Source: Candidatus Firestoneibacteriota bacterium (GTDB taxonomy: Bacteria; Oederibacteriota; Muellerivitia; Muellerivitales; Muellerivitaceae). Taken from it: DNA of 64,000 nucleotides. Under the pieces are notes generated by a model. It had not been told where the DNA came from, did not search any database, and saw only the letters and a program-made list of their open reading frames with translations. The stretch spans positions 4,293 through 68,292 of the forward strand of contig JABDGD010000004.1 of NCBI GenBank assembly GCA_013286205.1, given 5' to 3'. Below, piece by piece: positions 2,133 to 20,089 of the stretch; position 1 is the stretch's first letter; every line of letters begins with the position of its first letter. The position numbers and the translations under genes are program-made.

Positions 2133-2144
2133 GAGTCGCTTGCG

Positions 2145-2513: not shown

Positions 2514-2617
2514 GAAAGCTCCTCAAGAAAATTGAACAGAGAGAAAAATTGAGAAGTGTAGGAAGGGCGTGTGGGAAGCGGGATTGAATATATCAAAAAC
2601 GAGTGGGTTTTCCACTT

Positions 2618-3172: not shown

Positions 3173-3181
3173 GGAACCCCC

Positions 3182-3700: not shown

Positions 3701-3701
3701 A

Positions 3702-4787: not shown

Positions 4788-4881
4788 GAACTTCCCTTTC
4801 GAACAATGGTGAGGAGGTGCTTAGTTTAGCGGGCGTTATAGTGGATTGCAGGAATTTTTCTAAGGTTCCCATTTGGAACCT

Positions 4882-4908
4882 TAAAGTTTCATCTTTTGCT
4901 GCCGTTAG
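4882..4908 (+). promoter_or_regulatory. Putative sigma28 (FliA-type) promoter
   Basis: TAAAGTTT-N11-GCCGTTAG versus consensus TAAAGTTT-N11-GCCGATAA, ending 7 nt before the ATG of a flagellar-rod-like gene; overlaps inverted repeat TAAGGTTCC-N5-GGAACCTTA (4861-4883). Confidence 0.6.
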
Positions 4909-4915
4909 GGTCATT

Positions 4916-5248
4916 ATGAATAACGCCTCTATCAATGCTATTAATGGCATGCAAACCAACAGCCTTTGGCTAGACCGCACGGGAAGCCAGATCGCCAATA
5001 GTTCTGTGGCTGTTCAGGCCCCGCAAAGTTTCGAGACATTTTTGGGGAATGCTTCTGTGACGGGATTAGATGCTAGCGGCACTTTGAGTCCTGGCCTCGG
5101 CGGCTTTTCCGCTAACAGTCTCAGCGCATTGGATATGGGAATGGGTTCGGAAATTTTAGATTTGATTCTGGCCCAAAGGGGTTTTCAGCTCAACGCCCGG
5201 GCTTTCAATGAGACCAGCAAAGACCTGCTGACTTCGACAAACCTCTAA
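4916..5248 (+). CDS. Minimal flagellar rod/hook-like protein (N- and C-terminal D0-type motifs only), 110 aa
   Basis: N-terminal AINGMQTNSLWLDRTGSQIANS resembles the rod/hook SGL..NIAN motif; C-terminal EILDLILAQRGFQLNARAF resembles E..LI.AQR.FQANAK. Start reassigned from 4817 to ATG 4916. Confidence 0.65.
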   Translation: MNNASINAINGMQTNSLWLDRTGSQIANSSVAVQAPQSFETFLGNASVTGLDASGTLSPGLGGFSANSLSALDMGMGSEILDLILAQRGFQLNARAFNETSKDLLTSTNL

Positions 5249-5254
5249 AGTCTC

Positions 5255-6268: not shown

Positions 6269-6281
6269 GAAATTAGCTTAA

Positions 6282-6316
6282 TTATTAGTCAAGTGTAAGT
6301 CAAGTTATTAGTCAAC
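6282..6316. promoter_or_regulatory. Three direct repeats upstream of fic (probable autoregulatory operator/promoter)
   Basis: ttattagtcaag tgtaagtcaag ttattagtcaac, i.e. TTGACT x3 on the minus strand. Confidence 0.5.
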
Positions 6317-6339
6317 CTGCTTTAGCCAGCCTCAGTACC

Positions 6340-6391
6340 TTGGATATGGGAATGGGTTCGGAGATTCTGGCCCTAGATACCCTCTAAAGTC
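6340..6391 (+). repeat. Deleted duplicate of the 3' end of the 4916-5248 gene
   Basis: ttggatatgggaatgggttcgga identical at 5129-5151 and 6340-6362; gattctggccc at 5164 and 6363; cctctaaagtc at 5242 and 6381. Confidence 0.85.
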
Positions 6392-6436
6392 ACAAATTGT
6401 GACCTTAGACTTTGAAATCACAATTTGTGATTTCAA
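6384..6436. repeat. Two tandem palindromes (AAGTCACAAATTGTGACCTT type)
   Basis: ctaaagtcacaaattgtgaccttag (6384-6408) and perfect ttgaaatcacaa-t-ttgtgatttcaa (6412-6436). Confidence 0.8.
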
Positions 6437-6466
6437 GTTGGAAGACCGAAGGGCGTATAACCTGCC

Positions 6467-6602
6467 CGTCCTGCGCCGAGCCCACCAGGCGAGGTGCGAG
6501 ATTTCACCTGTTGTGAGGCATCAAGCCGAACAACATGACTTGGTTGTACCAACGCGCCATATTAGCGTTGGTAGGTCGCTAAAGTTTCCATGGAAACTTT
6601 AG
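6467..6602. repeat. Dispersed repeat copy A (GCCGAGCCCAC.AGGCGAGG family) plus hairpins
   Basis: cgtcctgcgccgagcccaccaggcgaggtgcgagattt; hairpin TACCAACGC/GCGTTGGTA (6547-6573); perfect 24-bp palindrome ctaaagtttccatggaaactttag (6579-6602). Confidence 0.75.
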
Positions 6603-7139
6603 AAGAACCTCTGAAAAAAAACATACAGCATCACCGTCCAGCCAAACAAAGCCGCTTCAATACTCGTCGCGATCAGCAAGGCCTTGCGGGAGGAACGGTC
6701 GGGCGCGATTAAAACCGCGAGAAAAAAAGTTCCCGCCATCACCGGCGCCGCGAAGATGCGGACGATTCCGAAAAAAAGAAATAAAGGCCCAGGGCATTCG
6801 CATGGGCAGGTCTAACAGTCCAAAAGCTTTCATCGCGACGTTGAGCATATCCAGGAAGGGCCCGGTCAGCGCGAAAAGTACCGCCGCCTTGGATAAAAAG
6901 GACCAAAATTTAAGAGAAGTTCGTGTGAAATAAAGCGCTAACCCGGTGGGTATCAGGGCCATCGCCCCGAACAGAAAGAAGAACATGATGGAATCGCCTT
7001 CGGCCACCATACCGCCAGAAGATTGGCTCCGCATCACCTGGGTCAGGCCCTCATAGATGTCCTCACCCACCCATGCCGCCGCGAAAGCGGCGATGTAACC
7101 CCCGATGACAATGCAAACTTTGAGCAGCGTTGATTTCAT
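6599..7139 (-). pseudogene. Integral membrane protein, frameshifted in a T-run at about 6771-6777 (pseudogene or sequencing error)
   Basis: Hydrophobic ORF turns to junk after FISFF; removing one T gives GIVRIFAAPVMAGTFFLAVLIAPDRSSRKALLIATSIEAALFGWTVMLYVFFQRFF-stop at 6599. Confidence 0.65.
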
Positions 7140-7274
7140 AGGAGTTACCTCGAAGGGATTCTATCGCTGTTTCATAGTCGCGTCAAAAAATGAGCAATGC
7201 TTTCCATTGGTGAGAGGCTTTGTTTCAACAACCCTTTCTTTTAATATCAGAGCATTCCTTTCGAAAGGTCTGCC

Positions 7275-8043
7275 ATGCGATTTGATGTTAAAAACACCCC
7301 TCAGCGAACCATCTATAACCTCATCAACGGCCTCGTGGCTCCCCGGCCTATTGCCCTGGTCACTACCCTCAGCCCAAAAGGTGTTCTGAATGCCGCGCCT
7401 TTTAGTTCATTCAATTACCTTTGCATCAACCCACCCATTTTGGGTTTGGGCGTCGCGGCCAAAAACCCCACCCCCGGCCAAATTGAAATCAAAGACACTG
7501 CCCGCAATATTGAGCAAACCGGCGAGTATGTGGTCAATGTGGTAACAGAGGATATCGCGCAAAAGATGAACATCTGCGGCGTGGATTTTCCCTCGGAAAT
7601 CAGCGAACCCGAAATGGCAGGCTTCACCACCGAACCTTCGTTAGTCGTCAAAGTCCCCCCGCCTCAAAGAATCCCACGCCGCTTTCGAGTGCAAGCTCTA
7701 TGACACCCTCAAGCCCGGCACCGCTGGTTCGCGCATTATTTTGGGAGAAGTGGTTGCGGTTTATGTCGATGACCAATATTTAGAAATCCCGACGGAAAAA
7801 GATGTACCTGTGCCGAGCCCACAAGGCGAGGCGCAAGCTTTGGTTACACCCGATCATCCCCAAAAAAGATCGGGTGGCCCTTATGTGAAAGCCGAAGATC
7901 TACATTCCATTGGCCGCATGAATGGGTTGAGCAAGTATGTTCATACGAGAGACGCGTTTTTTGACATGAAGCGGATGAATTATGAGGAATGGCGGAGGTC
8001 GGCAAACGACCGTCCTGCGCCGAGCCCACAAGCCCCTATGTAA
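7275..8043 (+). pseudogene. Flavin reductase family protein (DIM6/NTAB-like), frameshifted at a C6 run (7655-7660), with an in-frame repeat insertion
   Basis: APRPIALVTT, NAAPFS, KDTARNIEQTGEYVVN. Removing one C gives VPRLKESHAAFECKLY...ILGEVVAVYVDD, joining the 7741-8043 ORF (IGRMNG). Confidence 0.85.
7804..7876. repeat. Dispersed repeat copy B inside the flavin reductase CDS
   Basis: gtacctgtgccgagcccacaaggcgaggcgcaagctttggtta followed by hairpin CACCCGATC/GATCGGGTG. Confidence 0.8.
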
Positions 8044-8146
8044 AGCCGACAAGGCGAGACATAAGCTTTGGTGTACCCAATTGCCTATAAAACAATTGGG
8101 TGGCGAGGTGTAAGATTTGGCCGCTACCGTTCCATTGGAACGGTAG
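8011..8146. repeat. Dispersed repeat copies C1/C2
   Basis: cgtcctgcgccgagcccacaag...aaggcgagacataagctttggtgt + ACCCAATTG/CAATTGGGT hairpin, then ggcgaggtgtaagatttgg + CTACCGTTCCA/TGGAACGGTAG hairpin. Confidence 0.8.
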
Positions 8147-8246
8147 AACGGAAGGATCATCAAAAAACTGATAACGGATAATGGTAACTGCTACAAGTTG
8201 CGGGTGACCCCTATATTTGAACACTCGAAAGACTTATGATTTACAA

Positions 8247-8927
8247 ATGAAATACTTCTTCCTTTTATTAACGCTTATGCTCATCAGCCCGTTCAGTTAC
8301 GGTCAAAACCCAGACCTAGCTAAAACCATTCCCGACCAAAGCGGCTATTATCCGATCGACTTGGGCGCGCAATGGACCTTCGAGCTCAAAGAAAAGAATC
8401 AAATTAAAACATCCATCGTCACCTGCGATAAAACCGGAAAAATTCACAACTTAGAATGCGTTCACTTAAAAAGCTCCGAAAACCGCCTTTCCTGTTGGGT
8501 TCGAAAGGAAGGCAACGTGGTGAATATCATGCAAACCAGCCGGTCTATTTTGGGGTTGGCCAATGTGGCGATCACCTTTGACCCGCCCATTCCCATCTTA
8601 AAGTTTCCCCTCACCAAGGGTGACACTTGGGAATATCAGGGCTGGGGCCGCACCTTTTTTCTCAGCAAGCCGCTTCACGTGAGTTATCAAAACAAGGGCC
8701 TCGAAACCCTTCAGTTGGATGGAAAGTCTTACAAAGCCTACCGCATTGAAGCGAGTTATCAGGTGGGTAACGATCCGGCGAAAACCCAAATTTCTTGGTA
8801 TGCCCAGGGCCTGGGTTTTGTTCACAGCCATTCCGACGCGCTGGAAATTACTTTGAAAAACTATGTCTCAAGCCAAGTAGTGGATACCCATAAAAAAATA
8901 GCTCCAATGGATGATTCAGAAAAATAA
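8247..8927 (+). CDS. Exported hypothetical beta-rich protein
   Basis: Signal peptide MKYFFLLLTLMLISPFSYG; YYPIDLGAQWTF, FPLTKGDTW, SWYAQGLGFV pattern. Confidence 0.7.
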   Translation: MKYFFLLLTLMLISPFSYGQNPDLAKTIPDQSGYYPIDLGAQWTFELKEKNQIKTSIVTCDKTGKIHNLECVHLKSSENRLSCWVRKEGNVVNIMQTSRSILGLANVAITFDPPIPILKFPLTKGDTWEYQGWGRTFFLSKPLHVSYQNKGLETLQLDGKSYKAYRIEASYQVGNDPAKTQISWYAQGLGFVHSHSDALEITLKNYVSSQVVDTHKKIAPMDDSEK

Positions 8928-8943
8928 TTCGGCTATTTTTAAT

Positions 8944-8976
8944 GAGGCGCAAGATTTGGCTAACGGCTAGCAGCCG
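8944..8976. repeat. Dispersed repeat copy D (partial) at the left edge of the AT-rich island
   Basis: gaggcgcaagatttgg followed by CGGCT/AGCCG hairpin. Confidence 0.6.
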
Positions 8977-8994
8977 AAGAGCGTCGAAACCGTT

Positions 8995-9690
8995 TTATTC
9001 GATGGAGTCGCTTTTTTGAAGATTGTGTCGCGCACAAAGAAGTTGGATATTTTCAGCCAGTAATGACGTACCACCTTTGGCAAAAGGAAGAACGTGATCG
9101 TAATGGAGATTATCCGAACTTTGGCATTTCGTACATTTGCCCCCGTCTCGCTTCCAAACCGCTAACTTCACTGGCGAAGGGATTAAACGCGTGTGATCTA
9201 AATCAGGCACTTCATGATTTTCTAAATCAAACTCTTCTTGGGCGATTTCAAGACGAAATTTAAAGACTTCTCTTCTTCCAACTTTTTCCAACCAGGCATC
9301 CATTAATTTAAAAACCCCGTTGTAAACCCAAATACCGCTTTTGATTTTTTCATAAACTTTGACTAATTCGGCGTGATTTCCACTCTTCTTAGCTTTATGG
9401 GCGGCCTCAAAAAACTTCCCGTTTTCGGTCAGCTTTCCGGTTTTAGTGAACATAGGCTGATCTTTCTTTTTAACATCCCCAACCCCTCTGGTTTTCGGTA
9501 AATCGTGGCCTTCATAAATAAGAACTTTGCCATCTTCTTGAACTTGGTCCACATAAGGCGCACCTGGCCGAACACTCATTAAAATAACGCTATAGGCAGA
9601 TTTTAAATGAAAGTTCATGCCCCGTTGAAGCATGGAATCTTCTTCAGCGCATAACTGGGTGTGTGAAATAACATCGCCAGATTTAATCAT
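8995..9690 (-). CDS. HNH endonuclease with N-terminal SRA/PUA-like domain (putative modification-dependent restriction enzyme)
   Basis: C-terminal VWKRDGGKCTKC..LHYDHVLPFAKGG..NIQLLCARHNLQKS. N-terminal PYVD....LIYEG, TENGKF, VKVYEK, WVYNGVFKL pattern resembles SRA domains (inference). Confidence 0.8.
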   Translation of the reverse strand: MIKSGDVISHTQLCAEEDSMLQRGMNFHLKSAYSVILMSVRPGAPYVDQVQEDGKVLIYEGHDLPKTRGVGDVKKKDQPMFTKTGKLTENGKFFEAAHKAKKSGNHAELVKVYEKIKSGIWVYNGVFKLMDAWLEKVGRREVFKFRLEIAQEEFDLENHEVPDLDHTRLIPSPVKLAVWKRDGGKCTKCQSSDNLHYDHVLPFAKGGTSLLAENIQLLCARHNLQKSDSIE

Positions 9691-9699
9691 GGGCTTTTC

Positions 9700-9930
9700 T
9701 CATTTAGAGATTCCCTTAAATAAATCTTTAATTGAAACACCAAGGGCTTTGGTTAATGCAGAAAGGGTATGTAAGGTGGGATTTTTACGGCCTTGTTCTA
9801 AATGGGCAATGTAAATGGCAGAAAGATTAGCCATTTCGGCCAATTTTTCTTGCGTCAATTTCTTAGCTTTTCTTAAACGCGTTAGGTTTTCAGCAAACAT
9901 CTCTAAATCTTGGTCTTTTTGCGAGGTCAT
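9700..9930 (-). CDS. XRE-family HTH regulator (RM controller-like)
   Basis: LRKAKKLTQEKLAEMANLSAIYIAHLEQGRKNPTLHTL; directly upstream of the HNH gene. Confidence 0.88.
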   Translation of the reverse strand: MTSQKDQDLEMFAENLTRLRKAKKLTQEKLAEMANLSAIYIAHLEQGRKNPTLHTLSALTKALGVSIKDLFKGISK

Positions 9931-9967
9931 AATAAAACCCACAATAAGTCCAAATTATTCGCATGTC

Positions 9968-9985
9968 CTATTACTATAGTAATAG
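9968..9985. promoter_or_regulatory. Perfect 18-bp palindrome, probable XRE operator
   Basis: CTATTACTATAGTAATAG about 40 nt upstream of the XRE start; C-box-like GACTTATTGT nearby on the minus strand. Confidence 0.55.
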
Positions 9986-10103
9986 TTATTGATGTGTGAT
10001 TTGATTGAGTTAAATGAAGCAGCTATCGACAATCAAAATACGGAAAGCAAAGCGTAAAATGTAGGCGTGACTCTTTGCTCAAAACCCAAATTTCATTCTT
10101 TAA

Positions 10104-11552
10104 TTAGGCAATTTTGCTTTCTATGTCCGCAATTATTGAATCCAAATCATTCGCGGGCACACAATTAGAAATCCAAACCTGGCACATTGTCACCCACAAA
10201 TATTTTTCTTCCTGCACTAATAGTCTCGCCGCCTCTGAAAGCCAATCATGATGATCTGTTATAAGAACGGTTCGTTGTAAAATATCTATAATTTCTTCTT
10301 TTGCCTTTTCCAATCTAACACCTAAGGAAGTTAACGCAGAGTCCACATTTTTAATGTCCATAAAAACTTGTTTTTCTGGTGCCAAACTTCCATAAAACTT
10401 AACGCAACCTACACTTACTGGTTGATCCGCATCCAAAATCCCACAACCTTTGGAACCCAATAAATGACTTTGCTGACTCAATCGTCCAACAAGCTTTACT
10501 TCATTAGCAGGGCCAACAGCCACAACTCTTACTCTTCGCATATCAAATTTTCTAAACCTTAATAGCTCTTGTATTAAAATTACTGCCTCTTCATCTTCAC
10601 AATAAAGAATTGCCTCTGGATGAGACAACGTGTCCATTCTCGACAAAGCAAACTCAGGTGTAACTCCATAAAAAACCTCAACACCAGATACACTTCGTTG
10701 TAAGAAAATACGAGCTTCTGGAGGCAACTCTTCCAATACACACTTACTATGCGAGGAAAGTATTATTTGTATTTGCCCTAAACGCGAAAGCCAGAGTAGA
10801 TAGTGTATTAATCTGCGTTGCGCATAAGGATGAAGAGAAGCTTCGATTTCATCAATAATAAGTAAAGACGTATCTGGTATATTTTGAAGATAGAATAGAA
10901 GGTCTAATGTAGCATCCTCACCAGTGCCTTGATGAAATTGTGATATTTCCGAACTACCGATCTTTACAACCCCAACCGCACGTTTACTATCAAAATTAGA
11001 CTTAGCGAATTTCGCTTCAGTGTATTCACGACCCATTATTCTTGAATAATACTTAATGGTTTGAGGATCTAATTGGTCGACTGAAACTTCGGTTGCAGAT
11101 CTTTTCGTTTGAATTGCATAGCCAGCAATCGCATCCAAAGGTAAGGTTCTGGAAATATCGTGCCATCTAACAGCACGACCATGCCGTACTTTTGGGTACC
11201 TCCAATTTTTTGTTGTTTTCTGTAATTTGAACTCTGTTTTATGGTCCCCTTCCTTTATTTTGTAAATAAGTTCAACATTTTGAACACGTTCCCAAGCTGT
11301 ATCTGGAAAAAAGCTACTCGGATAGTACGTTTCTGTTGGATCATCAGAATCTACGTATGCAGAAGCTGCCGCTTTTAGAATTGTTGATTTCCCGCATCCG
11401 TTTTCTCCAGAAATAACACAAACAGGGAATGGAAACCGAATTTCTTGGCCATGCCATCCACGCAAACCACTTATCTTTACGGACTCAAGGAACTTCGGCC
11501 AAGAATTATTATCTGACATTCTCGATTTTATTTTATTAACTTCGGGATCCAT
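10104..11552 (-). CDS. ABC-type (AAA_15/AAA_21-like) ATPase fused to TOPRIM-like domain (OLD-like ATP-dependent nuclease)
   Basis: Walker A GENGCGKST, signature QGTGE, Walker B LLIIDEIEASLHP, H-loop SSHS; C-terminal LYCED and GILDAD (TOPRIM E and DxD). Confidence 0.8.
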   Translation of the reverse strand: MDPEVNKIKSRMSDNNSWPKFLESVKISGLRGWHGQEIRFPFPVCVISGENGCGKSTILKAAASAYVDSDDPTETYYPSSFFPDTAWERVQNVELIYKIKEGDHKTEFKLQKTTKNWRYPKVRHGRAVRWHDISRTLPLDAIAGYAIQTKRSATEVSVDQLDPQTIKYYSRIMGREYTEAKFAKSNFDSKRAVGVVKIGSSEISQFHQGTGEDATLDLLFYLQNIPDTSLLIIDEIEASLHPYAQRRLIHYLLWLSRLGQIQIILSSHSKCVLEELPPEARIFLQRSVSGVEVFYGVTPEFALSRMDTLSHPEAILYCEDEEAVILIQELLRFRKFDMRRVRVVAVGPANEVKLVGRLSQQSHLLGSKGCGILDADQPVSVGCVKFYGSLAPEKQVFMDIKNVDSALTSLGVRLEKAKEEIIDILQRTVLITDHHDWLSEAARLLVQEEKYLWVTMCQVWISNCVPANDLDSIIADIESKIA

Positions 11553-11584
11553 AATATTCCTTCAAAATTAAAAAAATAAATATC

Positions 11585-12811
11585 CTAGTTTTTTGTAAAA
11601 CTAAGTATCACTTCTTCTCTCATTCTTTTTTGCATGGCTTTTCCACTAGAGCTGTTACTTGGTGGCGGAAGATAACGTCTATTATCTGGCAAAGGTCTTT
11701 TCTTTATAAAATTGAGTCTCAATCCTTTTTCAATTGAAACATTTTTGATGATTTTCGAATTAGAAACAAAAACATTCCCTAAATTACAATCACCTATAAC
11801 AAAAATGGCTTTTCCGTTATTACAAAGAACTCGTTCGATCTCAGATATAACCAAATCAAGATCGAACACATATCTTTTAAGCATTCCCAATTGGGCTCCA
11901 GAGAGAACGCCAACTTCGTTCAAACCACAAAGCTTTAACACCTCCAAATCCCTTCTCGATTCTTCAGCTAATTTTTTTGTCGCGCCAATGTTCTCAGATC
12001 GAATTTTTCTTAGTTCAGATATGTTGTGGCCCATCCAAACCAACGACAATTTATGACCTCTCAAATAATCAATTGCATTTAAATAGGGCGGGGAGGTGAT
12101 AACCATGTCAACGCTTTTATTCCCTAACGATAAACTTCTCGCATCACCTCTTTTAATCAAAACCTTTTCCAATTCATTACAACGAACAAAACTCTCATTA
12201 AAAGGCATTCGTTTAAGAACAATTTTTAATTGCTTTGAAAAAAAATCAAACGGGGAAACAGGTGCACGCCTATATGATTTGTGCGGCCTGCTATGCGAAA
12301 CATCCATCGCCAACGAAACGCCTACTTTTTTTGTAATAATCATTCGCGAGAATGCACACCAAAATAAATTTTTAAACTTTTGATTTTCAACACTGTCAAT
12401 AACAAGGGATAAAGCAGAAAGCTCTTTTCTTGTTTTTTGGTCAAACCAAAAATCTATAAACTCTCTCGTTTCTTCATCTGCATGTTTTGGATAAGCTTTT
12501 CCTGGATCAAGTTTTTCGATCATCTTTTTTGCAGTATTTAACAAAATTTCAGAAGCGGTCAAAATTGCTTCTGGATTAGTAAGGTCCGAACACCAAGTTT
12601 TGGTCATTAACAAGGCCAAGGGATCTGTATCAAATCCAATACCTAAATTCCCCGTAGATCTAGCAACCGCAAGCGTTGTGCCGGACCCCATCATCGGGTC
12701 TAAAACACGAATACGTTTTTTCAATGACGAAAGTTCTTCCAGCGCAATTGCGGAGGCCATTCTTGCCGGAAACGGGTGAATTGGTTGAATTGAAGATATA
12801 AGAGAATTCAT
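11585..12811 (-). CDS. Amino-methyltransferase, alpha arrangement, probable N4-cytosine DNA methyltransferase
   Basis: HPFPARM, motif I VLDPMMGSGTT near the N-terminus, GDAR, motif IV ITSPPY. Confidence 0.88.
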   Translation of the reverse strand: MNSLISSIQPIHPFPARMASAIALEELSSLKKRIRVLDPMMGSGTTLAVARSTGNLGIGFDTDPLALLMTKTWCSDLTNPEAILTASEILLNTAKKMIEKLDPGKAYPKHADEETREFIDFWFDQKTRKELSALSLVIDSVENQKFKNLFWCAFSRMIITKKVGVSLAMDVSHSRPHKSYRRAPVSPFDFFSKQLKIVLKRMPFNESFVRCNELEKVLIKRGDARSLSLGNKSVDMVITSPPYLNAIDYLRGHKLSLVWMGHNISELRKIRSENIGATKKLAEESRRDLEVLKLCGLNEVGVLSGAQLGMLKRYVFDLDLVISEIERVLCNNGKAIFVIGDCNLGNVFVSNSKIIKNVSIEKGLRLNFIKKRPLPDNRRYLPPPSNSSSGKAMQKRMREEVILSFTKN

Positions 12812-14109
12812 TTTTTACTCAAAAACTTCATTGAATTCTCAGCTAAAGAAACAGAAAGCTTATCAATGAATTGTCTAACTTCTTTTCCACCGTCGTTTTT
12901 ACTCATTTCATAAAGCGTATAAACCAATGTTAAATAAAAGACCTCTCCACCAGAATGAGAAAGCCATTCTTTATAAATTTTATTGTCGCGATTTATTTTT
13001 AAAGATGCGCCATCTTTGGTTTCTTCATTTTTAAACATAATCCGGGTGTCGTAATGTGTAAGTTCGATTTTTAAACTTTTGTTTGATTCTCGTTTTATTA
13101 GTTTTTTGAATTTCTCAATTACTCTCGTCTCTTTTCGCGCGGGCGTTTTGGAATTGCGCACAGTCTTAACAACATCTGCAATTTCAACATTCATCTTTTT
13201 GTCTATTGCTTGCCAAAGTGGAGAATCACGGTCTATATCGGTTTTGTTCATTGTAAGAGGAAGATCAAAGTCGATATAAAGTTCGCCATAAAGCTTTTCC
13301 ATTGACCACTTTAAAGTCGCATCTGAATATCCAAAATACTCTTTATCTGCTACACATCGACCATATTGATAAATTCTAAAACCTTTTCTAAAGCCATCTT
13401 TTAACGATTCAGAAGTGACCTGCCCATACCAACCTTTTATATTATATTTTTGACTTAGAAAAGTGATGGAAAGCTTGATATCAGCTTTTACGTCCTCTTC
13501 AAACTCAACTTGTTTAGGCACAACCTTTATGCCATTTATTATAAAATCAACTTCTTCCAACAAAATCAAAGGCGTGTAGATTCTTTCAATGGTGCTCATA
13601 ACCGTTGACTGTCTAAACTCTCTTTTCAACCCAGTTAACTCCAACTTGACAAAACCATTGTCAATATTTGATGGAGAATTTTTTATTTCAAATTTTTTCA
13701 AACCTTCGGATCGATCTTCCCAATTTTCTACATTCAAATAATAAAAATCTTTGCTGCCTTTTGGCTTGGTTTCAATAGCAAAGCTTTTTGCTAAATAGCC
13801 TATCGACGCCTTACCACCTTGACCATATCGTCCTATTTGAGAATCTTTTTTTGAAACACCCCACGCAAAAAAATCTTTAAGATTTTCTGGGGTCATTCCT
13901 TTTCCATGTTCATTTTGAATATTCAAACTATTTTCATCAAAATTTATGGTAACGACTAATTTTGTGCCGCCAACACGATCGTCAACGGCATTATCAATCA
14001 ATTCAAGCAATGCTTCGTATTGGCTAGAAAAATTCTTATAGAGAGCGCTAATAAGTTGTGGATTAAACGTTTCTTCGATGGTCTTTAAGTACTCTTCATT
14101 TTTACCCAT
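12808..14109 (-). CDS. GHKL (HATPase_c_3 / MORC-like) ATPase
   Basis: EALLELIDNAVD (N box), HGKGM, SKK..IGRYGQGGKAS (G2), and S5-like GFRIYQYGR..LYGELYIDF.LPLTMNKTDI; ATGA overlap with the methyltransferase gene. Confidence 0.85.
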   Translation of the reverse strand: MGKNEEYLKTIEETFNPQLISALYKNFSSQYEALLELIDNAVDDRVGGTKLVVTINFDENSLNIQNEHGKGMTPENLKDFFAWGVSKKDSQIGRYGQGGKASIGYLAKSFAIETKPKGSKDFYYLNVENWEDRSEGLKKFEIKNSPSNIDNGFVKLELTGLKREFRQSTVMSTIERIYTPLILLEEVDFIINGIKVVPKQVEFEEDVKADIKLSITFLSQKYNIKGWYGQVTSESLKDGFRKGFRIYQYGRCVADKEYFGYSDATLKWSMEKLYGELYIDFDLPLTMNKTDIDRDSPLWQAIDKKMNVEIADVVKTVRNSKTPARKETRVIEKFKKLIKRESNKSLKIELTHYDTRIMFKNEETKDGASLKINRDNKIYKEWLSHSGGEVFYLTLVYTLYEMSKNDGGKEVRQFIDKLSVSLAENSMKFLSKK

Positions 14110-14262
14110 ACAAAAACTCCCTATGTTCTTTTATCAGAACCGTTCCAAAAACCAATCGATTTGTCACTATTTAAAATTTAAGCGCTAAAGTCTTGGAAAT
14201 TATACGTTTCTTAATTAGCTGTTTACACAAAATCATTTAATAACAGGTGCTAACTTAATACT

Positions 14263-16242
14263 TTAAGTCTCCTGCGAAGATTCAGCCGCAACTGGATGAA
14301 TCACATCAACTTTATAAAGTGCGTCTATTTGAATAACATTCGATTTTGTTGCCCTGGTTAATACTAATCGCTCTTTTAAATACTCGCTTAAAGCCACATC
14401 CTTACACCAAACATAACAACCCTTACGTCCGCGAGACAGCAAAACACGGTATGTGCTTTTAATAATGTTATCAACACGATCTAAAATTGCTTGTTGGGCC
14501 ATAGGATCATATTTAGCTTCTTTAAATTCCCCCTTCCAACCTTTAAGACTGGCGTCCGTCTTAGCTCTTTTGGTTGGATCACCAAGAACATGCTCATTTT
14601 TGTAAGCCAAATCATCACCTATCAAAACGCCCATCCAATCAAATTCTAAACCTTGGCTGGTGTGGATACAGCCCACTTGACCTATTCCATCTTTTGAAGC
14701 GGCCCAACTTTCACCGTCATAATTCCATGGCAAAGCTAGTCCATCTGCCTGCACGTGCATTACTGTTGTTCCCCGTTCACGACCTTTTGTTGGCCAGGGC
14801 CAAGAATAGCCAGCGATTAAACGGGCTTTGTTGTTGTCATTTTTAGCTTTTAAAGCTTCGTACAAGTCTTCAGCTTTATCAAAAACCTTAAACTCATACT
14901 GACCATCACCCCAATTATCGTAATTACCTGTGGGGCGAATTTGCAGAACATCATCTAACCAATTGAGATACCCGGTTGAACCATTACAACGAAATTGAGC
15001 CGTTAGCTTCATCGGTTCGTGAAATTCGGCTTTAAATTTTTTAGCGGCATCTTTAATGGTTTCTATCGACCCAGAATCTTGCCAACTAACCCTTTGTGAT
15101 TCATCAATAAAGAAAACGCTAATGCGCGCGCTTCGCACCATGTCTTCGACCATGCTTTTACCTTTGTATTGATAGGCTTTGTCTTTTAAACGGTGCGCTT
15201 CATCCACAACTAATATTTCGTTTCGTTCATCTTTACGGTAATCAGATTGGTGAAAGCTCCAAGACGACTTAAAGAGCGCTTCACCATCTTCACGATAGCG
15301 TCTATCACCCTTCGACAAACTATCCACCAAGGCATCCCGAAAAGCTTTATTGGGTGCAACGAAAAAAGCCATGCGCTTTTTCTTTAGTGTCTCGGCTAGC
15401 AAGCGGACCGCAATAACGGATTTGCCTGTACCAGGTCCGCCTTCCACTACAAAAACATGTCGATGAGTCCGGTCAGCATCATTAAGAACTTGATGACGAA
15501 TAACTCGAAAAGCTTCATCTTGTTCATCAATCAATTGAAATTCTTCATTTCCTTCTAACATGCTTTCGACGCGACTTATAAGTTCGTCGGCTGGTCGCCA
15601 GCGTCCTTGGTCCAAAAGAAACAAAACATCATTCGTGGCTTTTTTGGGAATTAGTTCTTCAAAGTAATGCCGAAGGATTGAAACGTCGTCAGCGAGAAAT
15701 AATCGTGATTCAGCCAACAAATCTTTATAGCGTGAATCCTCTAAAGGCTCCGGGTTACGGCGGCGAAGATTAAAAAGGTAGGCTGACGGATGCATTTGAA
15801 CACCCTTTTCCAAAATATCTTGGTTGAAGCGCATAATCATGCCCTTGTACTGCCGGGCCTGCAAACTGGGATGTTGTTTTATTTTTCCACCGCCAACGGG
15901 GGCAAAAACCATATTTTCAATTTCAGTAGCGTCTGCTTTATCCCAGGCTTTCAGCTCGATGATCAAACCGTTGTCGTTTTTGCCATCACTGCCGGCCAAA
16001 AGAACATCGATGCGATTACGGCCAATAGATGAAACGTGATATTCAATCGCGACTTGAATATCGTCAGCTACTTCGGCCTTACGTAGTACGCCTGAAAACT
16101 GTGCGTATTCAGAAGCCCAAACTGAACGGTCAGCTGGTATAGAACCCGTCTTAGCTTTAAAGGCGTTTTCCAAGCTGGGTTGCAGAACGTTGTTATCAAC
16201 ATCTTCTATGAAGCCAGCTTTTGTGTTTTGGTAAATGATCAT
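14263..16242 (-). CDS. DUF2075 (Schlafen group 3-like) SF1 DNA/RNA helicase with N-terminal PD-(D/E)XK-like nuclease domain
   Basis: IEY..RIDVLL...IIELKAW; VEGGPGTGKS; VVDEAHRL; QFRCNGS; GCIHTSQGLEFD; YRVLLSRGRKGCY. Confidence 0.9.
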   Translation of the reverse strand: MIIYQNTKAGFIEDVDNNVLQPSLENAFKAKTGSIPADRSVWASEYAQFSGVLRKAEVADDIQVAIEYHVSSIGRNRIDVLLAGSDGKNDNGLIIELKAWDKADATEIENMVFAPVGGGKIKQHPSLQARQYKGMIMRFNQDILEKGVQMHPSAYLFNLRRRNPEPLEDSRYKDLLAESRLFLADDVSILRHYFEELIPKKATNDVLFLLDQGRWRPADELISRVESMLEGNEEFQLIDEQDEAFRVIRHQVLNDADRTHRHVFVVEGGPGTGKSVIAVRLLAETLKKKRMAFFVAPNKAFRDALVDSLSKGDRRYREDGEALFKSSWSFHQSDYRKDERNEILVVDEAHRLKDKAYQYKGKSMVEDMVRSARISVFFIDESQRVSWQDSGSIETIKDAAKKFKAEFHEPMKLTAQFRCNGSTGYLNWLDDVLQIRPTGNYDNWGDGQYEFKVFDKAEDLYEALKAKNDNNKARLIAGYSWPWPTKGRERGTTVMHVQADGLALPWNYDGESWAASKDGIGQVGCIHTSQGLEFDWMGVLIGDDLAYKNEHVLGDPTKRAKTDASLKGWKGEFKEAKYDPMAQQAILDRVDNIIKSTYRVLLSRGRKGCYVWCKDVALSEYLKERLVLTRATKSNVIQIDALYKVDVIHPVAAESSQET

Positions 16243-16263
16243 TTGGCCAAATGCCTTTTCGGT

Positions 16264-16641
16264 TTATAAATCGTTGTATTTCTTGTTGCTACCCTTTGAT
16301 TTATGAACTGGGTACTTTTTATTGTTGATCACCATTTTGCGACTCAAGGCGTGGCTTAAATCAATGTTGGCCATTTGAGCGAATCGCAAAAGCATAAAAA
16401 GGGTATCAGCTACCTCATGTTCTACTTCCAAACGTTTTTTAGGGTTCTTTAAATAGTTACGAGCTTCGTCTTCGGTTTTAAAACGGAAATGATCGAGAAG
16501 CTCAGCCGCTTCGGTGACGACACCAATGCTTAAATCTTTGGGCCCGTGGTACTGATCCCAATCCCGAACTTCACAAAATTGTTGGACAATATTCTTAAGT
16601 TGGTTGATGGTCGTTTTTTTATCCACTGTTTTCTTTCCCAA
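16264..16641 (-). CDS. MazG-like all-alpha nucleotide pyrophosphohydrolase
   Basis: RDWDQYHGPKDL, EAAELL, EVAD, KMVINNKKYP..KSKGSNKKY. Confidence 0.9.
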   Translation of the reverse strand: MGKKTVDKKTTINQLKNIVQQFCEVRDWDQYHGPKDLSIGVVTEAAELLDHFRFKTEDEARNYLKNPKKRLEVEHEVADTLFMLLRFAQMANIDLSHALSRKMVINNKKYPVHKSKGSNKKYNDL

Positions 16642-16663
16642 AATTTACTTGTCTTAAAAGTAA

Positions 16664-17464
16664 TTAAACTGAGACCTCTAAAAACTCGCCATTTAAGCCC
16701 GCAATGATTCTCTCTAGATATTTCATCATACTAGTTTCGATCAACATGATTTCTTCAAGTGACAAATTTATTTCGCTATCTAAAACCAGTTGCTCTTTAA
16801 AATTTCTAGGAAAGACTTCTTCTACTTGTTTTAAAGTTTTAGAATTAACAATCGCTCCATCATGAACAATTGAATGTCGACAAGCTTGACTTACAATAAT
16901 ATTGTTAACATTTACATCTTTGGTGATTGTTAGATGAAGATAATTCTTGAAAGCCTTGTAAACACTTTGCATGTCCTGAAAACTAATTTCTTTCTTAGAA
17001 GAAAAGACTTCTGCCAATATCTCTTTACGCGCGACTTCAATAATTTTTTCTAGTTCGCCAAAAGTTAACTTCATTTCTTCTTTTTTAAGATGGCCAAGCT
17101 TTTTCTTTTGAAAACCATAAGTAAGACTCGAAACAAACACATCGCTTAAAGCCGATGCGAAATGTGAAACCAACAACACTAACGCTTGATTAAAAATAGT
17201 TCCGTAATGTGTTCTTAATGAATCGTTCTTTTGAATATTTCTGAGGTTTTCTAAAGTCTTATCAACTGACAAATGCGGATTATCAAGCTTGTGATGTTGT
17301 TTTAGTTTTTCAGAGAGTTTTTCAAGATCGGTAATTGCCGTGCTTAAAACTATTCGATCGAAATTAATGAGATCGTTCACAATTTGGACGTTTTTTTCAA
17401 ACGTCGTAATAATTTTGGAATTGATCTCTTTTAGAGTTGGTGTTGCTAAAACTGACGCTGGCAA
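16664..17464 (-). CDS. Hypothetical all-helical protein with HEPN-type RxxxxH motif
   Basis: QALVLLVSHF..., ISFQ, CRHSIVHDGAIV; TTG start with GGAG RBS. Confidence 0.6.
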   Translation of the reverse strand: MPASVLATPTLKEINSKIITTFEKNVQIVNDLINFDRIVLSTAITDLEKLSEKLKQHHKLDNPHLSVDKTLENLRNIQKNDSLRTHYGTIFNQALVLLVSHFASALSDVFVSSLTYGFQKKKLGHLKKEEMKLTFGELEKIIEVARKEILAEVFSSKKEISFQDMQSVYKAFKNYLHLTITKDVNVNNIIVSQACRHSIVHDGAIVNSKTLKQVEEVFPRNFKEQLVLDSEINLSLEEIMLIETSMMKYLERIIAGLNGEFLEVSV

Positions 17465-17696
17465 TTTCTCCGCCTTTTAAGCTTTTGAGTCTTTCAAACT
17501 TCATTCAAGCTCTGTCCAATTCTACCCCCACCCCTAAAACACCGGCTGGTAATTCCCTTATGGAAAACGGCAATCCCAAAAAGCCGTTGACGAAGCGTCT
17601 TTTTTAAACAAAATGTCCCCGAAATTTTATTAATCCCCTAGCGGGGACTAACTCCCCCACAAAAAGCGTCGGGGATCATTCGAAAGGACTCCTTAT

Positions 17697-19097
17697 ATGA
17701 CGCCTGAAAACACCGTATTAGCCCCTACTGCCAACTCTAATAATGGCGAGTTGGCCTCCTCTAATTCGGGGATTTCGTCTTCGACTCAACAACCAATACG
17801 TAAAGCCACCCTGACCAAGGTAGCCATCCACCAAATATGGCCTAACCCCCAGAACCCCCGGTCGGTCTATAGCCTCGAAGACATTCAAAATCTGGCGGCC
17901 AACCTGAAGGCCTCGGGCCAGCGCAGCCCTATAAAGCTGGTACCCCTGACCGAGTTAGAAAAGGCCCAGTTACAGAACGGCTATGAGTATAAGCTTCTGG
18001 GCGGGCACATGCGCCGGGAAGCGGCGCTGACCCTGGGTTGGGATAGCCTGGATGCACTGATCTTCGACTTAACCCCCGATGAGGCCGAGTTGGAGATGAT
18101 CTTAGACAACCGGGTGATCGAACTACCCTGGCTGGATCAGTACAAGGTCATTGAGGCCTATAAGGCCAAGAACCCGACCCTGAGCCAAGAAGCCCTGGGT
18201 GCCCGGTTAGGGGTAGACCAGGTGACCATTAGCCGGGCTTTGAAGACCTTAAAGTACCTAAATCAGGGTTCCCGGGAGCTGGTTTATTCAGTCTGCATAA
18301 AACCGGGTGCCGCGCTTCAGGGTGGCAAGATGGTAGCCTTGGCTTTAACCGCCTTAGAAGACCCCGAAAAGGTCGAGCAAGCCCTGCGGGTAGCCCTCGA
18401 CCGGAAGATGACGGAAGCCCAAGCCAAGAAGCTGGTCGAATGGGTGCAGGGGGGCAATGAGCCGGAGGCATACAAACCCGCAAAAGAAGTTAGGAGTTCG
18501 AAGTTAGAGAGTTCGGAGTTAAAGGAACAAACACATCCTCACCCCAGCGCAAATATACCTCTAGGACAACCAAGTCATATCGCTCAACCAAAAGTCTTGG
18601 AGCAGGTGAAAGCCTTAACTTCTAACTCCTCACTTCGAACTTCTAACTCAAAAGCCGTTCCTGCCCCCGCGGCCAACCGCCAAATGTCCGAAACGGAAAC
18701 CGTCTTATGGAGTGAGGCGGTCGGCATTTCTATCGTGAGCCGCATTAAGGCCAAAATTAAAAAGGGCGAACGGCCTAACTTGTTTGAGGTTTTAATTTTG
18801 GCGGTTCATACCCTGGGGACAGGCCTGGCCTGGGTAGCCAAGCAGGTTTGGAAAATGGCTAAGCCGGTCGCCAAGGTTCTTTGGAAACTTTTAAAAGACG
18901 GCGTGAAGCTAACGCTAAAGGCTTTAGGCCGGACGGTCTATAACCTGGTTCGCGTAGTCTTAGTTTTGACAGTGCTGGGGCTATTGGGCTGGTTCGCCTG
19001 GGAATTTTATAAGAATGGCCATCATCCCCGGCAAGCTTTACTCACTATCGGCAAGACCCTAATAGATTGGGCGGTTCTTCTCTGGCGCCAAGGATGA
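17697..19097 (+). CDS. ParB/Spo0J-like protein with HTH and C-terminal membrane anchor
   Basis: PNPQNPR, GQRSPI, GGHMRREA (GxxR box), LSQEALGARLGVDQVTISRAL HTH, hydrophobic VVLVLTVLGLLGWFAWEFY. Confidence 0.8.
   Translation: MTPENTVLAPTANSNNGELASSNSGISSSTQQPIRKATLTKVAIHQIWPNPQNPRSVYSLEDIQNLAANLKASGQRSPIKLVPLTELEKAQLQNGYEYKLLGGHMRREAALTLGWDSLDALIFDLTPDEAELEMILDNRVIELPWLDQYKVIEAYKAKNPTLSQEALGARLGVDQVTISRALKTLKYLNQGSRELVYSVCIKPGAALQGGKMVALALTALEDPEKVEQALRVALDRKMTEAQAKKLVEWVQGGNEPEAYKPAKEVRSSKLESSELKEQTHPHPSANIPLGQPSHIAQPKVLEQVKALTSNSSLRTSNSKAVPAPAANRQMSETETVLWSEAVGISIVSRIKAKIKKGERPNLFEVLILAVHTLGTGLAWVAKQVWKMAKPVAKVLWKLLKDGVKLTLKALGRTVYNLVRVVLVLTVLGLLGWFAWEFYKNGHHPRQALLTIGKTLIDWAVLLWRQG
18486..18650. 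repeat. Heptamer-periodic inverted repeat element inside the ParB-like CDS
   Basis: gaagtta ggagttc gaagtta g agagttc ggagtta (18486-18521) and taacttc taactcc tcacttc gaacttc taactca (18616-18650). Confidence 0.75.
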
Positions 19098-19109
19098 ACA
19101 TCAGGAAAT

Positions 19110-19143
19110 AAAAAAGGCTCCCGGAAATTCCAGGAGCCTTTAA
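19110..19143. terminator. Bidirectional intrinsic terminator
   Basis: aaaaaaggctcc-cggaaattcca-ggagccttt between convergent genes. Confidence 0.65.
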
Positions 19144-19162
19144 ACTTAAAACACATTTTTAT

Positions 19163-19525
19163 TTAAGCTTCAGTCAGATCAACATCTTCCAAAAGATCTC
19201 TAAAACTAACACCTAATGCTTTCGCTATTTTTTGAATAACATCCAACGTGGCGTTATAGCCATAATCCAAATCCTCAATGTAATTAAGCGTTCTCAAACT
19301 AACACCGGATTTATGTGCCAAATCCTTTTGAGTCATATGTTTCTTGGTGCGGATATGGACTAAATTCCAAGCTAAACAAGCTTTAGGATCTGGATTTTTA
19401 AGAGACTTGTAAATTTCAGGATTGGTTTTTTTAAGTTTTTTTAAATTATCTTCATGGCTCGTAAAACCACTGAATGTTTTCTTTTTTTCTACTGTTTTCA
19501 TTTCGCTCACCTTATTTATATTCAC
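19163..19525 (-). CDS. XRE-HTH antitoxin-like protein (HigA-like); alternative start 19501
   Basis: RTKKHMTQKDLAHKSGVSLRTLNYIE; overlaps the upstream RelE-like gene. Confidence 0.8.
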   Translation of the reverse strand: MNINKVSEMKTVEKKKTFSGFTSHEDNLKKLKKTNPEIYKSLKNPDPKACLAWNLVHIRTKKHMTQKDLAHKSGVSLRTLNYIEDLDYGYNATLDVIQKIAKALGVSFRDLLEDVDLTEA

Positions 19526-19821
19526 TCGTCTTGTTCTTCAATCTCCTGTACCAATTTTTTTAGCGCCGCAAGTTCCTTAGGGCTCGGCTCCCCTTTTCTC
19601 ACAATGTGAGCTGTCAAAACAAAGAGCGTGTTCAGCTTATGCGAAAAATAAAAATTAACGCAAATCGTCCTATTTTCAGTTTTTACAAGGATCTCAAAAG
19701 GGCCTTGTTTCGGTTTTTCTAATTTTAACTTTCCTATTTGTACCTTATAAGCCGTGTACTCCTTGCCGTTGATGATCCTATTTGAAAACTGCCCAAAAAA
19801 GTTTGACTCTTGGATGTTCAT
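19522..19821 (-). CDS. Putative HigB/RelE (Gp49-like) toxin; may start at 19864 with a T-run frameshift
   Basis: C-terminal FVLTAHIVRKGEPSPKELAALKK resembles the Gp49-type LLHGF.KK...P..EI motif; toxin-first order with XRE gene. Confidence 0.5.
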   Translation of the reverse strand: MNIQESNFFGQFSNRIINGKEYTAYKVQIGKLKLEKPKQGPFEILVKTENRTICVNFYFSHKLNTLFVLTAHIVRKGEPSPKELAALKKLVQEIEEQDE

Positions 19822-20003
19822 AATGTAACCCCTGGTCGAAATTTGTACTGTTAATTGGTTTCATGGTTATCCCCTCAATGTTTGTCTGTTTTAAAATAAA
19901 GCCTCCGCCACTTGGCCGGGGGTCCTCAGTGCACTCTCCGTAATTTACTGATCAACTTCTCGAACCCTAATCCAGCAAAACATTGGACTAAAGCTTCAAA
20001 TCA

Positions 20004-20032
20004 AGAATATGCACTATATTGCACTTTGTCAA
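20004..20032 (-). promoter_or_regulatory. sigma70 promoter with operator-like near-palindrome in the spacer
   Basis: TTGACA-N17-TATTCT on the minus strand; TGCACTATATTGCA at 20010-20023. Confidence 0.6.
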
Positions 20033-20089
20033 GTTTAAAGAAAAGGCTCTCTTGTCCCATTGCCTAAATCCGTTTAAGATACCGCCCTT

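Follow-up and report, generated by a model that had tools for sequence, protein, structure and literature searches.

The locus described here raises the question of whether eight contiguous genes of restriction, nuclease and ATPase families form one antiviral machine or a set of smaller ones. These genes lie at 8995-17464 of a 64,000-nucleotide stretch of DNA from a Candidatus Firestoneibacteriota bacterium (the window; all positions are given in it), which is located on contig C4 of an assembly of 2.23 Mb in 76 contigs that is 67% complete. We consider it probable that the segment is a mosaic island of separable cassettes and not one machine, with a middle operon that is restriction-modification-like, of the paraMORC kind, and in which the nuclease was replaced by one of the HEC-04/OLD family. 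What is new is this operon of a MORC-like ATPase, a methylase and an OLD-type nuclease, which was found only in this window; that the three genes form a functional unit we place at slightly short of an even prospect.

Organization of the island

Eight open reading frames (ORFs), all on the minus strand, fill 8995-17464 exactly (~8.5 kb), and the intergenic distances in 5'-3' gene order are 22, 21, 153, -4, 32, 161 and 9 bp. Based upon this spacing, the genes were grouped into three operons (HEPN-MazG-helicase; GHKL-methylase-ATPase-TOPRIM; XRE-SRA-HNH) with gaps of 153 and 161 bp between them. The features are as follows, in the direction of transcription.

16664-17464, minus strand: HEPN-domain protein, 266 aa
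16264-16641, minus strand: MazG-like nucleotide pyrophosphohydrolase, 125 aa
14263-16242, minus strand: nuclease-helicase with a PD-(D/E)xK domain and a superfamily 1 (SF1) DUF2075/Schlafen-group-3 helicase, 659 aa
14110-14262, minus strand: AT-rich intergenic gap between operons 1 and 2, 153 bp
12808-14109, minus strand: MORC-like (paraMORC-type) GHKL ATPase, 433 aa
11585-12811, minus strand: DNA methyltransferase with a TSPPY motif, 408 aa
10104-11552, minus strand: OLD-family ABC ATPase-TOPRIM nuclease of the HEC-04 family, 482 aa
9968-9985, minus strand: candidate operator, a perfect 18-bp palindrome (CTATTACTATAGTAATAG), read directly
9700-9942, minus strand: XRE/Cro-type helix-turn-helix (HTH) regulator, 80 aa
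8995-9690, minus strand: SRA-HNH endonuclease, 231 aa

The guanine-cytosine (GC) content of the island was 0.341-0.438 (1-kb windows, 9001-17500), compared with 0.467-0.540 within 1-8000, 0.535 at 17501-19000 and 0.545-0.557 at 20001-21500. A first-pass annotation, made from the letters of this DNA, had described eight co-oriented genes at 8995-17464 in three sub-operons, AT-rich relative to the flanks; the ORFs fell at exactly these limits with the 153- and 161-bp gaps, and the GC profile (0.34-0.44 versus about 0.47-0.55) bore the description out. Its domain calls were reproduced using Pfam, PADLOC and NCBIfam, that of the HEPN protein by way of its family, Rx4H motif and fold, and the catalytic motifs that it had called intact were invariant or present in the ATPase-TOPRIM protein, the helicase N-terminus and the methylase. 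The PADLOC run likewise agreed with it in giving no match to BREX, DISARM, Gabija, Septu, PARIS, Menshen or Dnd beyond the domain level.

A promoter scan of the island returned 18 sites (21.3 +/- 5.6 in shuffled sequences) and a terminator scan 11 (7.6 +/- 3.3 in shuffles), neither above chance, and based upon the former no promoter is claimed for the gap at 14110-14262. No Rfam family reached its gathering score within 8000-20000.

Distribution of the cassettes

Neither the eight-gene set nor any two of the operons together occurred anywhere else in the collections searched. Given that the parts occur apart elsewhere and that each cassette has its own distribution, the reading of the island as one eight-gene system is not supported. 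A single-protein scan of genome contigs with the GHKL protein returned no relative, and tblastn against the PLSDB plasmids no match; an alignment-based scan returned 68 genome and 80 metagenome loci (148 in all), 0/148 of which held a relative (phmmer, E <= 1e-4) of the HEC-04-like, DUF2075, MazG, HEPN, XRE or SRA-HNH genes. No HEPN, GHKL or OLD gene lay alongside the helicase in the 16 other helicase loci. Comparison of gene neighborhoods, a check named in the first-pass annotation, thus divided the sub-cassettes: the MazG-helicase (12/16) and XRE-SRA-HNH (2/13) pairs recur, and the partnerships of the HEPN and OLD-type genes do not.

The GHKL ATPase and methylase

The GHKL protein matched PF13589 (E 5.9e-10) and no PADLOC model. 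It has 95 homologues, the closest 63% identical, and residues E36, D39, N40, D43, G69, G71 and G93-K100 were invariant in 30 sequences. A profile of the family matched MORC3 at 1.7e-6 as well as MORC4 and MORC2. The AlphaFold 2 (AF2) model, with a pLDDT (predicted local distance difference test) score of 83.3, was searched using Foldseek, where the top match was the MORC3 ATPase (5ix2_B, E 8.2e-15, template modeling score 0.52, root-mean-square deviation 5.9, 378 columns), followed by TRAP1/Hsp90, SMCHD1 and MORC2/4. As modeled, the protein is MORC-like, with a probable second, transducer-like domain. Viral matches were distant (28-43% identical over the N-terminal domain).

The methylase start overlaps the GHKL stop in a 4-bp ATGA that was read directly, and 32 bp separate the methylase from the ATPase-TOPRIM gene. 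The methylase was matched by PADLOC MTase_II (PDLC03322, 3.3e-26, residues 11-404), and its motifs by PF01555 (N6_N4 methylase) and UPF0020; its layout is permuted, with an N-terminal motif I and TSPPY at 239-243. On its SPPY motif, it is a putative N4-methylcytosine (m4C) enzyme. Its identity to the methylases of other GHKL operons is 22-25%, and DxFxGxGTT and TSPPY were invariant among 11 methylases, all of which have the permuted layout.

Twenty-five of the GHKL loci were close to that of the window (40-47% identical, ~430 aa; some are near-duplicates, such as L079/L080 and L072/L073). Fifteen of these 25 are complete operons of a methylase, a 360-aa protein (X360), HerA/DUF87 and GHKL; 7/25 are contig-end fragments of that operon, 2/25 are methylase-HNH_2-GHKL and 1/25 was uninformative. 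X360 had no Pfam or PADLOC match, and all 30 of its 30 ESM Atlas feature matches fell in NurA-carrying clusters (score 0.95). Based upon this census and the NurA-like nature of X360, this GHKL family is always found together with a methylase and a nuclease module (24/25 close loci). The remaining GHKL loci encode proteins of ~500 aa that are 27-37% identical, mostly from Chloroflexota, and have no neighbor in common with the window.

The four-gene operon of TSPPY methylase, NurA-like protein, HerA/DUF87 and GHKL was observed at L002:5925-11290 and also in L003, L004, L070, L072, L073, L075, L079-L081, L083, L084, L086, L087 and L124, with the GHKL gene of L124 in two ORFs. Its hosts were metagenome-assembled genomes labeled Smithella, Chitinophagaceae and Bifidobacteriaceae, along with many metagenomes. 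In L002 and L087 the operon is preceded by an NYN-domain gene, and in L003 a WYL/WCX regulator comes after it. Neither the GHKL nor the NurA-like protein is modeled in PADLOC v2, and a literature search joining HerA, GHKL, methyltransferase and defense system found nothing relevant, with the supplementary tables of PADLOC, MADS and Tiamat as places that may list similar loci. Homology between the HNH enzyme of the window and the HNH_2 enzyme of L091 was sought and not found (E 0.079).

The ATPase-TOPRIM nuclease and its predicted complex

PADLOC matched the ATPase-TOPRIM protein to HEC-04 (PDLC04149) at E 1.3e-55 over residues 4-478 (model positions 10-486 of 494); the second-best model, ATPase-Toprim_I-B, scored 4.5e-18. 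There were 404 homologues at E <= 0.001 among 8000 candidates scored, and 36 that were aligned, from many phyla, are 43-53% identical (one 79%). In the resulting 37 sequences K55, D234/E235, H268, E319/D320 and D374 were invariant and D376 was present in at least 90%, residues that cover the Walker A, Walker B, H-loop and TOPRIM E/DxD motifs. By these alignments the protein is a full-length member of the HEC-04/OLD family. Relatives stood alone in 3/3 plasmid (24-29% identical) and 3/3 viral contexts (36-40%), one of them adjoining a type I restriction system. A HEC-04-like protein was not found in 401 Bacteroidota genomes at E <= 1e-40, which shows little since three candidates per genome were scored.

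Given that the GHKL family is always found with a nuclease module and that an OLD-type protein fills that slot here, the GHKL and ATPase-TOPRIM proteins were selected for complex prediction. The pair scored 0.62 (runs of 0.60, 0.62 and 0.65), and the best of three controls scored 0.00. The mark for this score is reached by 58/80 solved complexes and 2/110 mismatched pairs, counts that hold only roughly here because the pair was run with its own unpaired alignments. The runs agreed in at least 53% of contacts, and partner pLDDT was at least 76. The prediction supports binding of the GHKL protein to the nuclease, with an interface formed by GHKL residues 164-171, 192-194, 233-242 and 271 and by ATPase residues 69-73, 160-165, 223-227 and 258-259.

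A two-residue insertion in the GHKL side of this interface (236-237) is present in 2/30 family members. Identity to other homologues was lower at the interface than overall on both sides (GHKL 0.29 versus 0.42; ATPase 0.24 versus 0.48), and in the closest relative of each it was 0.61 (GHKL) and 0.73 (ATPase). This pattern fits a lineage-specific change of partner.

The HEPN, MazG and nuclease-helicase operon

The MazG-like protein is all-alpha and matched PF12643 (E 4e-10, 40.2 bits against a cut-off of 27). The helicase matched PF09848 (SLFN-g3/DUF2075) at E 3.8e-88 over residues 261-615, with a Walker A motif (GGPGTGKS) and DEAHR that were invariant in eight sequences, as were E67, D79 and E96-x-K98 of an N-terminal PD-(D/E)xK domain (~1-230). 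Its PADLOC matches were partial (PDC-S41 4.5e-12, Nhi 3.1e-11, AbiO 3.2e-11), and neither phmmer nor a profile search returned anything from the Protein Data Bank (PDB).

The pairing of these two genes is widespread. The helicase matched 105 plasmid records, 34 of them over at least 80% of its length; four of the 34 were opened for their neighbors, and MazG was directly upstream in three (Priestia, the archaeon Halalkalicoccus and Marivirga; not Methanosphaera), with the helicase gene broken in the Marivirga plasmid. Twelve other genomes of the phylum have a relative of the helicase, nine of them with MazG upstream, for 12/16 loci overall. An HNH_2 nuclease gene adjoins the helicase in 6/12 phylum loci, a C5 cytosine methylase gene is found there in one, and the closest helicases (76-80% identical) have HNH_2 in place of the operon 2 of the window. 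A literature search found no paper pairing DUF2075 with MazG, or MazG and a Schlafen helicase with defense. DUF2075 NTPases beside modification-dependent enzymes were noted earlier (PMC6765204; here and below, papers given by identifier are cited from the accessible part of their text).

Other features of these loci were also observed. The HNH_2 gene (PF13391, 303-318 aa) often follows MazG-DUF2075 (L186, L187, L195, L185 (= L165) and L194 (= L167)) and in L189 lies between MazG and the helicase. Several helicases of the phylum, at 793-812 aa, have a ~150-aa C-terminal extension that is absent from the 659-aa protein of the window, and genome G046 encodes a second, divergent DUF2075 paralogue directly after an HNH_2 gene. 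In the same-genus genome G044 (L166:4301-5392), MazG-DUF2075 is followed after 76 bp by the C5 cytosine methylase gene and preceded by a Fic gene, and these neighbors place MazG-DUF2075 in a restriction-type setting in the closest relatives as well.

The HEPN gene heads operon 1 but is not conserved with MazG and the helicase. Its relatives in the phylum lie in two genomes, both without the DUF2075 helicase; the neighbors of one are genes for a type I S subunit and a Schlafen AlbA_2 protein, and the other is flanked by a DUF2971 gene and by a gene with a weak GIY-YIG match. The family comprises 454 representatives at E <= 1e-3 (the closest 68% identical), and R196 and H201 of the Rx4H motif were invariant in 43 sequences. 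PF18735 (HEPN_RiboL-PSP) was matched by 12/43 family members, at best at 2.4e-6, and the window protein itself had no direct Pfam match. Its AF2 model (pLDDT 93.4) is all-helical, and the top rows from VIA-align were HEPN proteins: 1ufb (Z 9.2), 4nqf (9.2), 2hsb (8.8), 5yep (8.1), 1wol (8.0), 8xdj (7.9) and Csm6 6tug (7.5), where a Z of 8-9.2 is by the warning of the tool a modest score for helical bundles. Foldseek with the same model returned nothing at E <= 0.001, a profile search of the PDB was empty, and no member of the family was found in viral contigs. The protein is predicted to be an RNase. Its TTG start is uncertain, with relatives aligning from about residue 11-20.

The XRE and SRA-HNH operon

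The XRE protein matched PF01381 (HTH_3, 3.4e-15) and the PADLOC model Control_protein (8.4e-14, model positions 8-74 of 77), and in sequence it resembles the controller (C) proteins of restriction systems. The sole promoter-like site in the 161-bp gap upstream of it is ATCACA-16-TATAGT (10000-9973), and the palindrome at 9968-9985 (CTATTACTATAGTAATAG) overlaps its -10-like TATAGT. This arrangement, a small HTH gene upstream of a nuclease gene and with a palindrome in its own promoter, is the one expected of a C-protein gene, and the palindrome is a candidate operator of the XRE protein.

In the SRA-HNH protein, the HNH domain (residues 186-228) scored above cut-off at 25.4 bits and the SAD_SRA domain (residues 22-148) just under it (27.1 bits against 30.7). 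There were 7851 family members at E <= 1e-3 among 8000 proteins scored, ~60% identical across phyla and in the closest case 78% identical, most of which carry PF02182 and PF01844 in precomputed annotation. A profile of the family matched the SRA domain of SUVH5 (9.4e-4, residues 22-149) and the HNH domain of IscB (2.5e-4); no solved SRA-HNH chain was matched directly at E <= 0.1, and a single-sequence search of the PDB was empty. The protein is a predicted modification-dependent (type IV) restriction enzyme. An XRE gene lies directly upstream in 2/13 other full-length loci (L158 and L171, which hold the two closest SRA-HNH relatives among these loci, at 64% identity), and viral contigs held only three partial SRA-HNH loci.

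Proposed mechanism and competing explanations

We infer the activities of the proteins, self-protection by the methylase and the coupling of GHKL to the nuclease as follows. The core of operon 1 would be the MazG-like and PD-(D/E)xK-DUF2075 cassette, which may degrade phage DNA or replication intermediates, and a portable gene for a HEPN RNase would have been placed in front of it. In operon 2 the methylase would mark host DNA, and the GHKL protein, probably an ATP-driven DNA clamp, would sense or hold unmarked DNA and license the nuclease; the usual nuclease module (NurA-like and HerA, or HNH) would in this lineage have been swapped for a HEC-04/OLD nuclease. In operon 3 the C-protein-like XRE regulator would repress via the palindromic operator over its own promoter, and SRA-HNH would cut DNA with modified cytosines; operon 3 would thereby cover phages that escape operon 2 by modification. 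We hold only tentatively the specific form of this proposal for operon 2, a three-gene system in which GHKL docks on the ABC-ATPase head of the TOPRIM nuclease and licenses it on DNA unmarked by the TSPPY methylase, with a nuclease slot that is exchangeable between NurA-like/HerA, HNH and OLD modules.

Several observations weigh against a mosaic island with a three-gene operon at its center. The count of 0/148 was obtained with a crude ORF picker that lost the GHKL ORF in 47/148 loci, mostly of high GC, and many of the surveyed loci were short contigs or had flanks of only 1.5 kb. As the eight genes are co-oriented and share a low GC content, they may have been acquired jointly, and they could act in concert or under common regulation. 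Only in this window, and in 0/148 GHKL loci, is GHKL joined to an OLD-type nuclease. The complex score is the confidence of the model itself, from the pair's own unpaired alignments, and the divergence of the interface could be ordinary surface variability. MutS (an ABC ATPase) and MutL (a GHKL ATPase) form a solved complex to which the GHKL-nuclease pair bears a likeness, and the passing score may echo that pairing. Finally, since relatives of HEC-04 are otherwise solitary and are known to be embedded in other systems, the nuclease may simply be embedded here.

On this last account the ATPase-TOPRIM protein would be an autonomous HEC-04-type defense, and the GHKL and methylase proteins would be without a nuclease or would borrow a neighboring one. 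HEC-04 works alone in E. coli and was discovered embedded in other systems (10.1101/2024.01.29.577857); its relatives stood alone in 6/6 contexts, one beside a type I system, and no GHKL locus has such a neighbor. Against this stand the 24/25 close GHKL loci with a nuclease module in their own operon, the complex score of 0.62 versus 0.00 for controls (on a rough benchmark), the lineage-specific interface and the 32-bp gap, and we regard an embedded, independent nuclease as unlikely, if well short of negligible. A different partner for the GHKL and methylase proteins would be the DUF2075 nuclease-helicase, acting as their restriction and motor subunit such that operons 1 and 2 form one system, along the lines of the operons of MORC, helicase and methylase genes predicted in 2008. 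Helicases, nucleases and methylases are the commonest linkage partners of MORC/paraMORC genes (PMC2292703), a C5 methylase follows MazG-DUF2075 by 76 bp in G044, and the HNH_2 gene found after DUF2075 in 6/12 phylum loci shares its Pfam family with the nuclease of the L089 and L091 GHKL variant. However, MazG-DUF2075 occurs in 12 loci without GHKL and GHKL in 148 loci without DUF2075, a 153-bp gap separates the operons, and the MORC associations of 2008 involve SF2 helicases, whereas DUF2075 is SF1. This union is improbable, and the helicase, placed by the first-pass annotation alongside GHKL and the methylase, goes with MazG in operon 1.

The broadest reading, in which all eight genes are a single integrated, undescribed multi-module defense system, was that of the first-pass annotation. 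Co-orientation, contiguity, a common low GC content and motifs that are all intact speak for it. It is countered by the absence of the set, or of any operon pair, from everything else in the collections searched, an outcome that the annotation itself had named as telling against it, by cassettes with distributions of their own and by two parts that are known stand-alone systems, and we consider it very improbable. Two of the parts are of kinds already described: the ATPase-TOPRIM protein belongs to the published HEC-04 family, which that annotation did not list, and SRA-HNH is of the TagI/ScoA3IV type IV family. The annotation's picture of a layered defense, with methylation-based restriction, modification-dependent cleavage and an RNase/nucleotide-hydrolase arm, is still plausible for the island, though not as one system.

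Acquisition and flanking DNA

Gene content and composition support a horizontally acquired low-GC defense island with intact genes. Among 98 other genomes of the phylum, SRA-HNH was present in 1/98, the HEC-04-like gene in 0/98 and the HEPN gene in 2/98, and both same-genus genomes (89% and 99% complete) are without all three. Ordinary genes flank the island: to its left gcvT, a Fic/DOC gene and a flavin-reductase-like gene, to its right prfC and a gene with a ParB_N domain. The distance from the Fic to the ParB-like gene is 48 bp in the same-genus genome G045 versus 11.4 kb in the window; given that the order and orientation of flank genes differ in G045, the region was rearranged and is not a clean insertion, and no simple insertion site could be defined. 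The island borders showed no flanking direct repeats, att-like sites, tRNA or integrase, and megablast of 8500-18000 against E. coli genomes returned no match.

The DNA is held publicly by soil metagenomes, and no RNA run was among the public runs containing it. Contigs from three further soil metagenome runs match portions of the island, and of the flanks on both sides, at >=99% identity (6000-20000), and one of these contigs spans the left border (8337-9159). These near-identical contigs indicate the same population, with the island at the same place, in other samples and are not independent support.

A GC-rich repeat of ~35 nt, similar to repetitive extragenic palindromic (REP) sequences or miniature inverted-repeat transposable elements (MITEs), occurs at 6470-6504, 7807-7841, 8014-8069 and 8944-8962; several copies lie to the left of the island, and an incomplete one is right at its left edge. 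In the same-genus genomes, pieces of the repeat have matches at many places. Also on the left, a gene at 5255-6268 (minus strand) encodes the Fic/DOC protein with a C-terminal winged-helix (MarR-like) domain and is kept in G045 (E 4e-211). On the right, the ParB_N-domain gene (17697-19097, plus strand, 466 aa, GC ~0.53) is divergent from the HEPN gene and may be linked to the island; a 2013 survey of HEPN proteins described operons in which another HEPN family accompanies ParB nucleases and methylases. Between the ParB-like gene and prfC lies a second patch of low GC content (0.38 at 19001-20000); its 120-aa HTH_3 protein and the 99-aa ORF without a family that overlaps it (19163-19821, minus strand) look like a toxin-antitoxin pair.

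Implications

In the accessible literature, the MORC-like ATPases of prokaryotes, from which the chromatin-silencing MORC proteins of eukaryotes presumably descend, figure only as proposed or putative parts of defense. The window, 22 NurA-like/HerA loci and two HNH loci together present a constant GHKL-methylase core with swappable nuclease modules, and operon 2 is a compact three-gene version of it that at 3.9 kb is easy to clone and mutate. Should the three-gene system be real, it would provide the first mechanistic handle on these ATPases and would indicate that a HEC-04 that is "embedded" can become functionally connected to the system hosting it, and contact between GHKL and the nuclease would explain how an OLD-type nuclease is controlled by methylation. 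If the modules are independent, the segment would be an ordinary defense island of known kinds. Two widespread unnamed cassettes, MazG-DUF2075(-HNH_2) and methylase-NurA-like-HerA-GHKL, are themselves candidates for defense.

Comparison with known systems

The SRA-HNH protein shares the order of its domains, SRA then HNH, and a similar size class with TagI, ScoA3IV and TbiR51I, which are characterized modification-dependent type IV endonucleases (PMC6212794); in the clade of the window it is in addition preceded by a C-protein-like regulator with a candidate palindromic operator. The nuclease-helicase has the architecture of Nhi, an N-terminal PD-(D/E)xK nuclease joined to an SF1 helicase overlapping DUF2075 (10.1101/776245), but it is paired with a MazG-like gene, and its PADLOC match to Nhi covers residues 233-421 (model positions 179-332 of 470) and not the full length.

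MADS is a 22-kb operon of eight genes with a type-I-like methylase and specificity subunit, in which MAD6-8 are mandatory (10.1101/2023.03.30.534895, PMC13662399). The likeness is one of outline only: a self-marking methylase, an OLD-like ATPase-TOPRIM nuclease (MAD3/MAD4) and an HTH regulator. Membership in MADS was rejected, as there was no mad6 or mad7 match, mad8 matched only 46 P-loop residues of the helicase (9e-5), and mad3 matched only at the domain level (8.2e-15), with NCBIfam MAD3 at 25 bits against a cut-off of 420. Hma consists of HmaA (a Snf2-DUF3883 helicase), a DUF1156 methylase and HmaC, a DUF499 AAA+ ATPase and not a GHKL protein (PMC11232893); the idea of HmaC as a GHKL ATPase was thereby refuted. 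No Hma model was found among the PADLOC matches listed (for the helicase none of 9; for the other proteins among the best 25 of 38 and of 137), and membership in Hma was rejected.

HEC-04 (Hma-embedded candidate 04) defends E. coli as a single gene and requires its Walker A and TOPRIM residues, as seen with the mutants K62A and E319A/D375A/D377A (10.1101/2024.01.29.577857). The protein of the window has the Walker A lysine and the TOPRIM E/DxD at equivalent positions, and its gene also sits inside a methylase-containing locus. It differs in its tight operon with GHKL and methylase genes and in its predicted binding to GHKL, whereas the published HEC-04 acts alone.

For operon 2 as a whole, the nearest relative among the loci collected is the four-gene operon, which has the same GHKL family (42-47% identical) and a homologous TSPPY methylase. 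There the methylase is first and GHKL last and the nuclease module is NurA-like and HerA, whereas in the window GHKL is first and the module is OLD/TOPRIM. Prokaryotic MORC/paraMORC proteins were predicted in restriction-modification operons with methylases, helicases and nucleases (PMC2292703; 10.64898/2026.09.30.754977), including cases of paraMORC1 with HNH enzymes (PMC2292703); such systems, predicted in 2008 (PMC2292703), are still termed "proposed" in a 2026 preprint (10.64898/2026.09.30.754977). The OLD/TOPRIM partner in the window and the NurA-like/HerA partners of its relatives are not described in the accessible text of PMC2292703, where "HerA" has 0 mentions. With a small GHKL protein that has a MORC3-like fold and a probable second domain, in an operon with a methylase and a nuclease, the locus agrees with paraMORC, and paraMORC operons are the right frame for operon 2.

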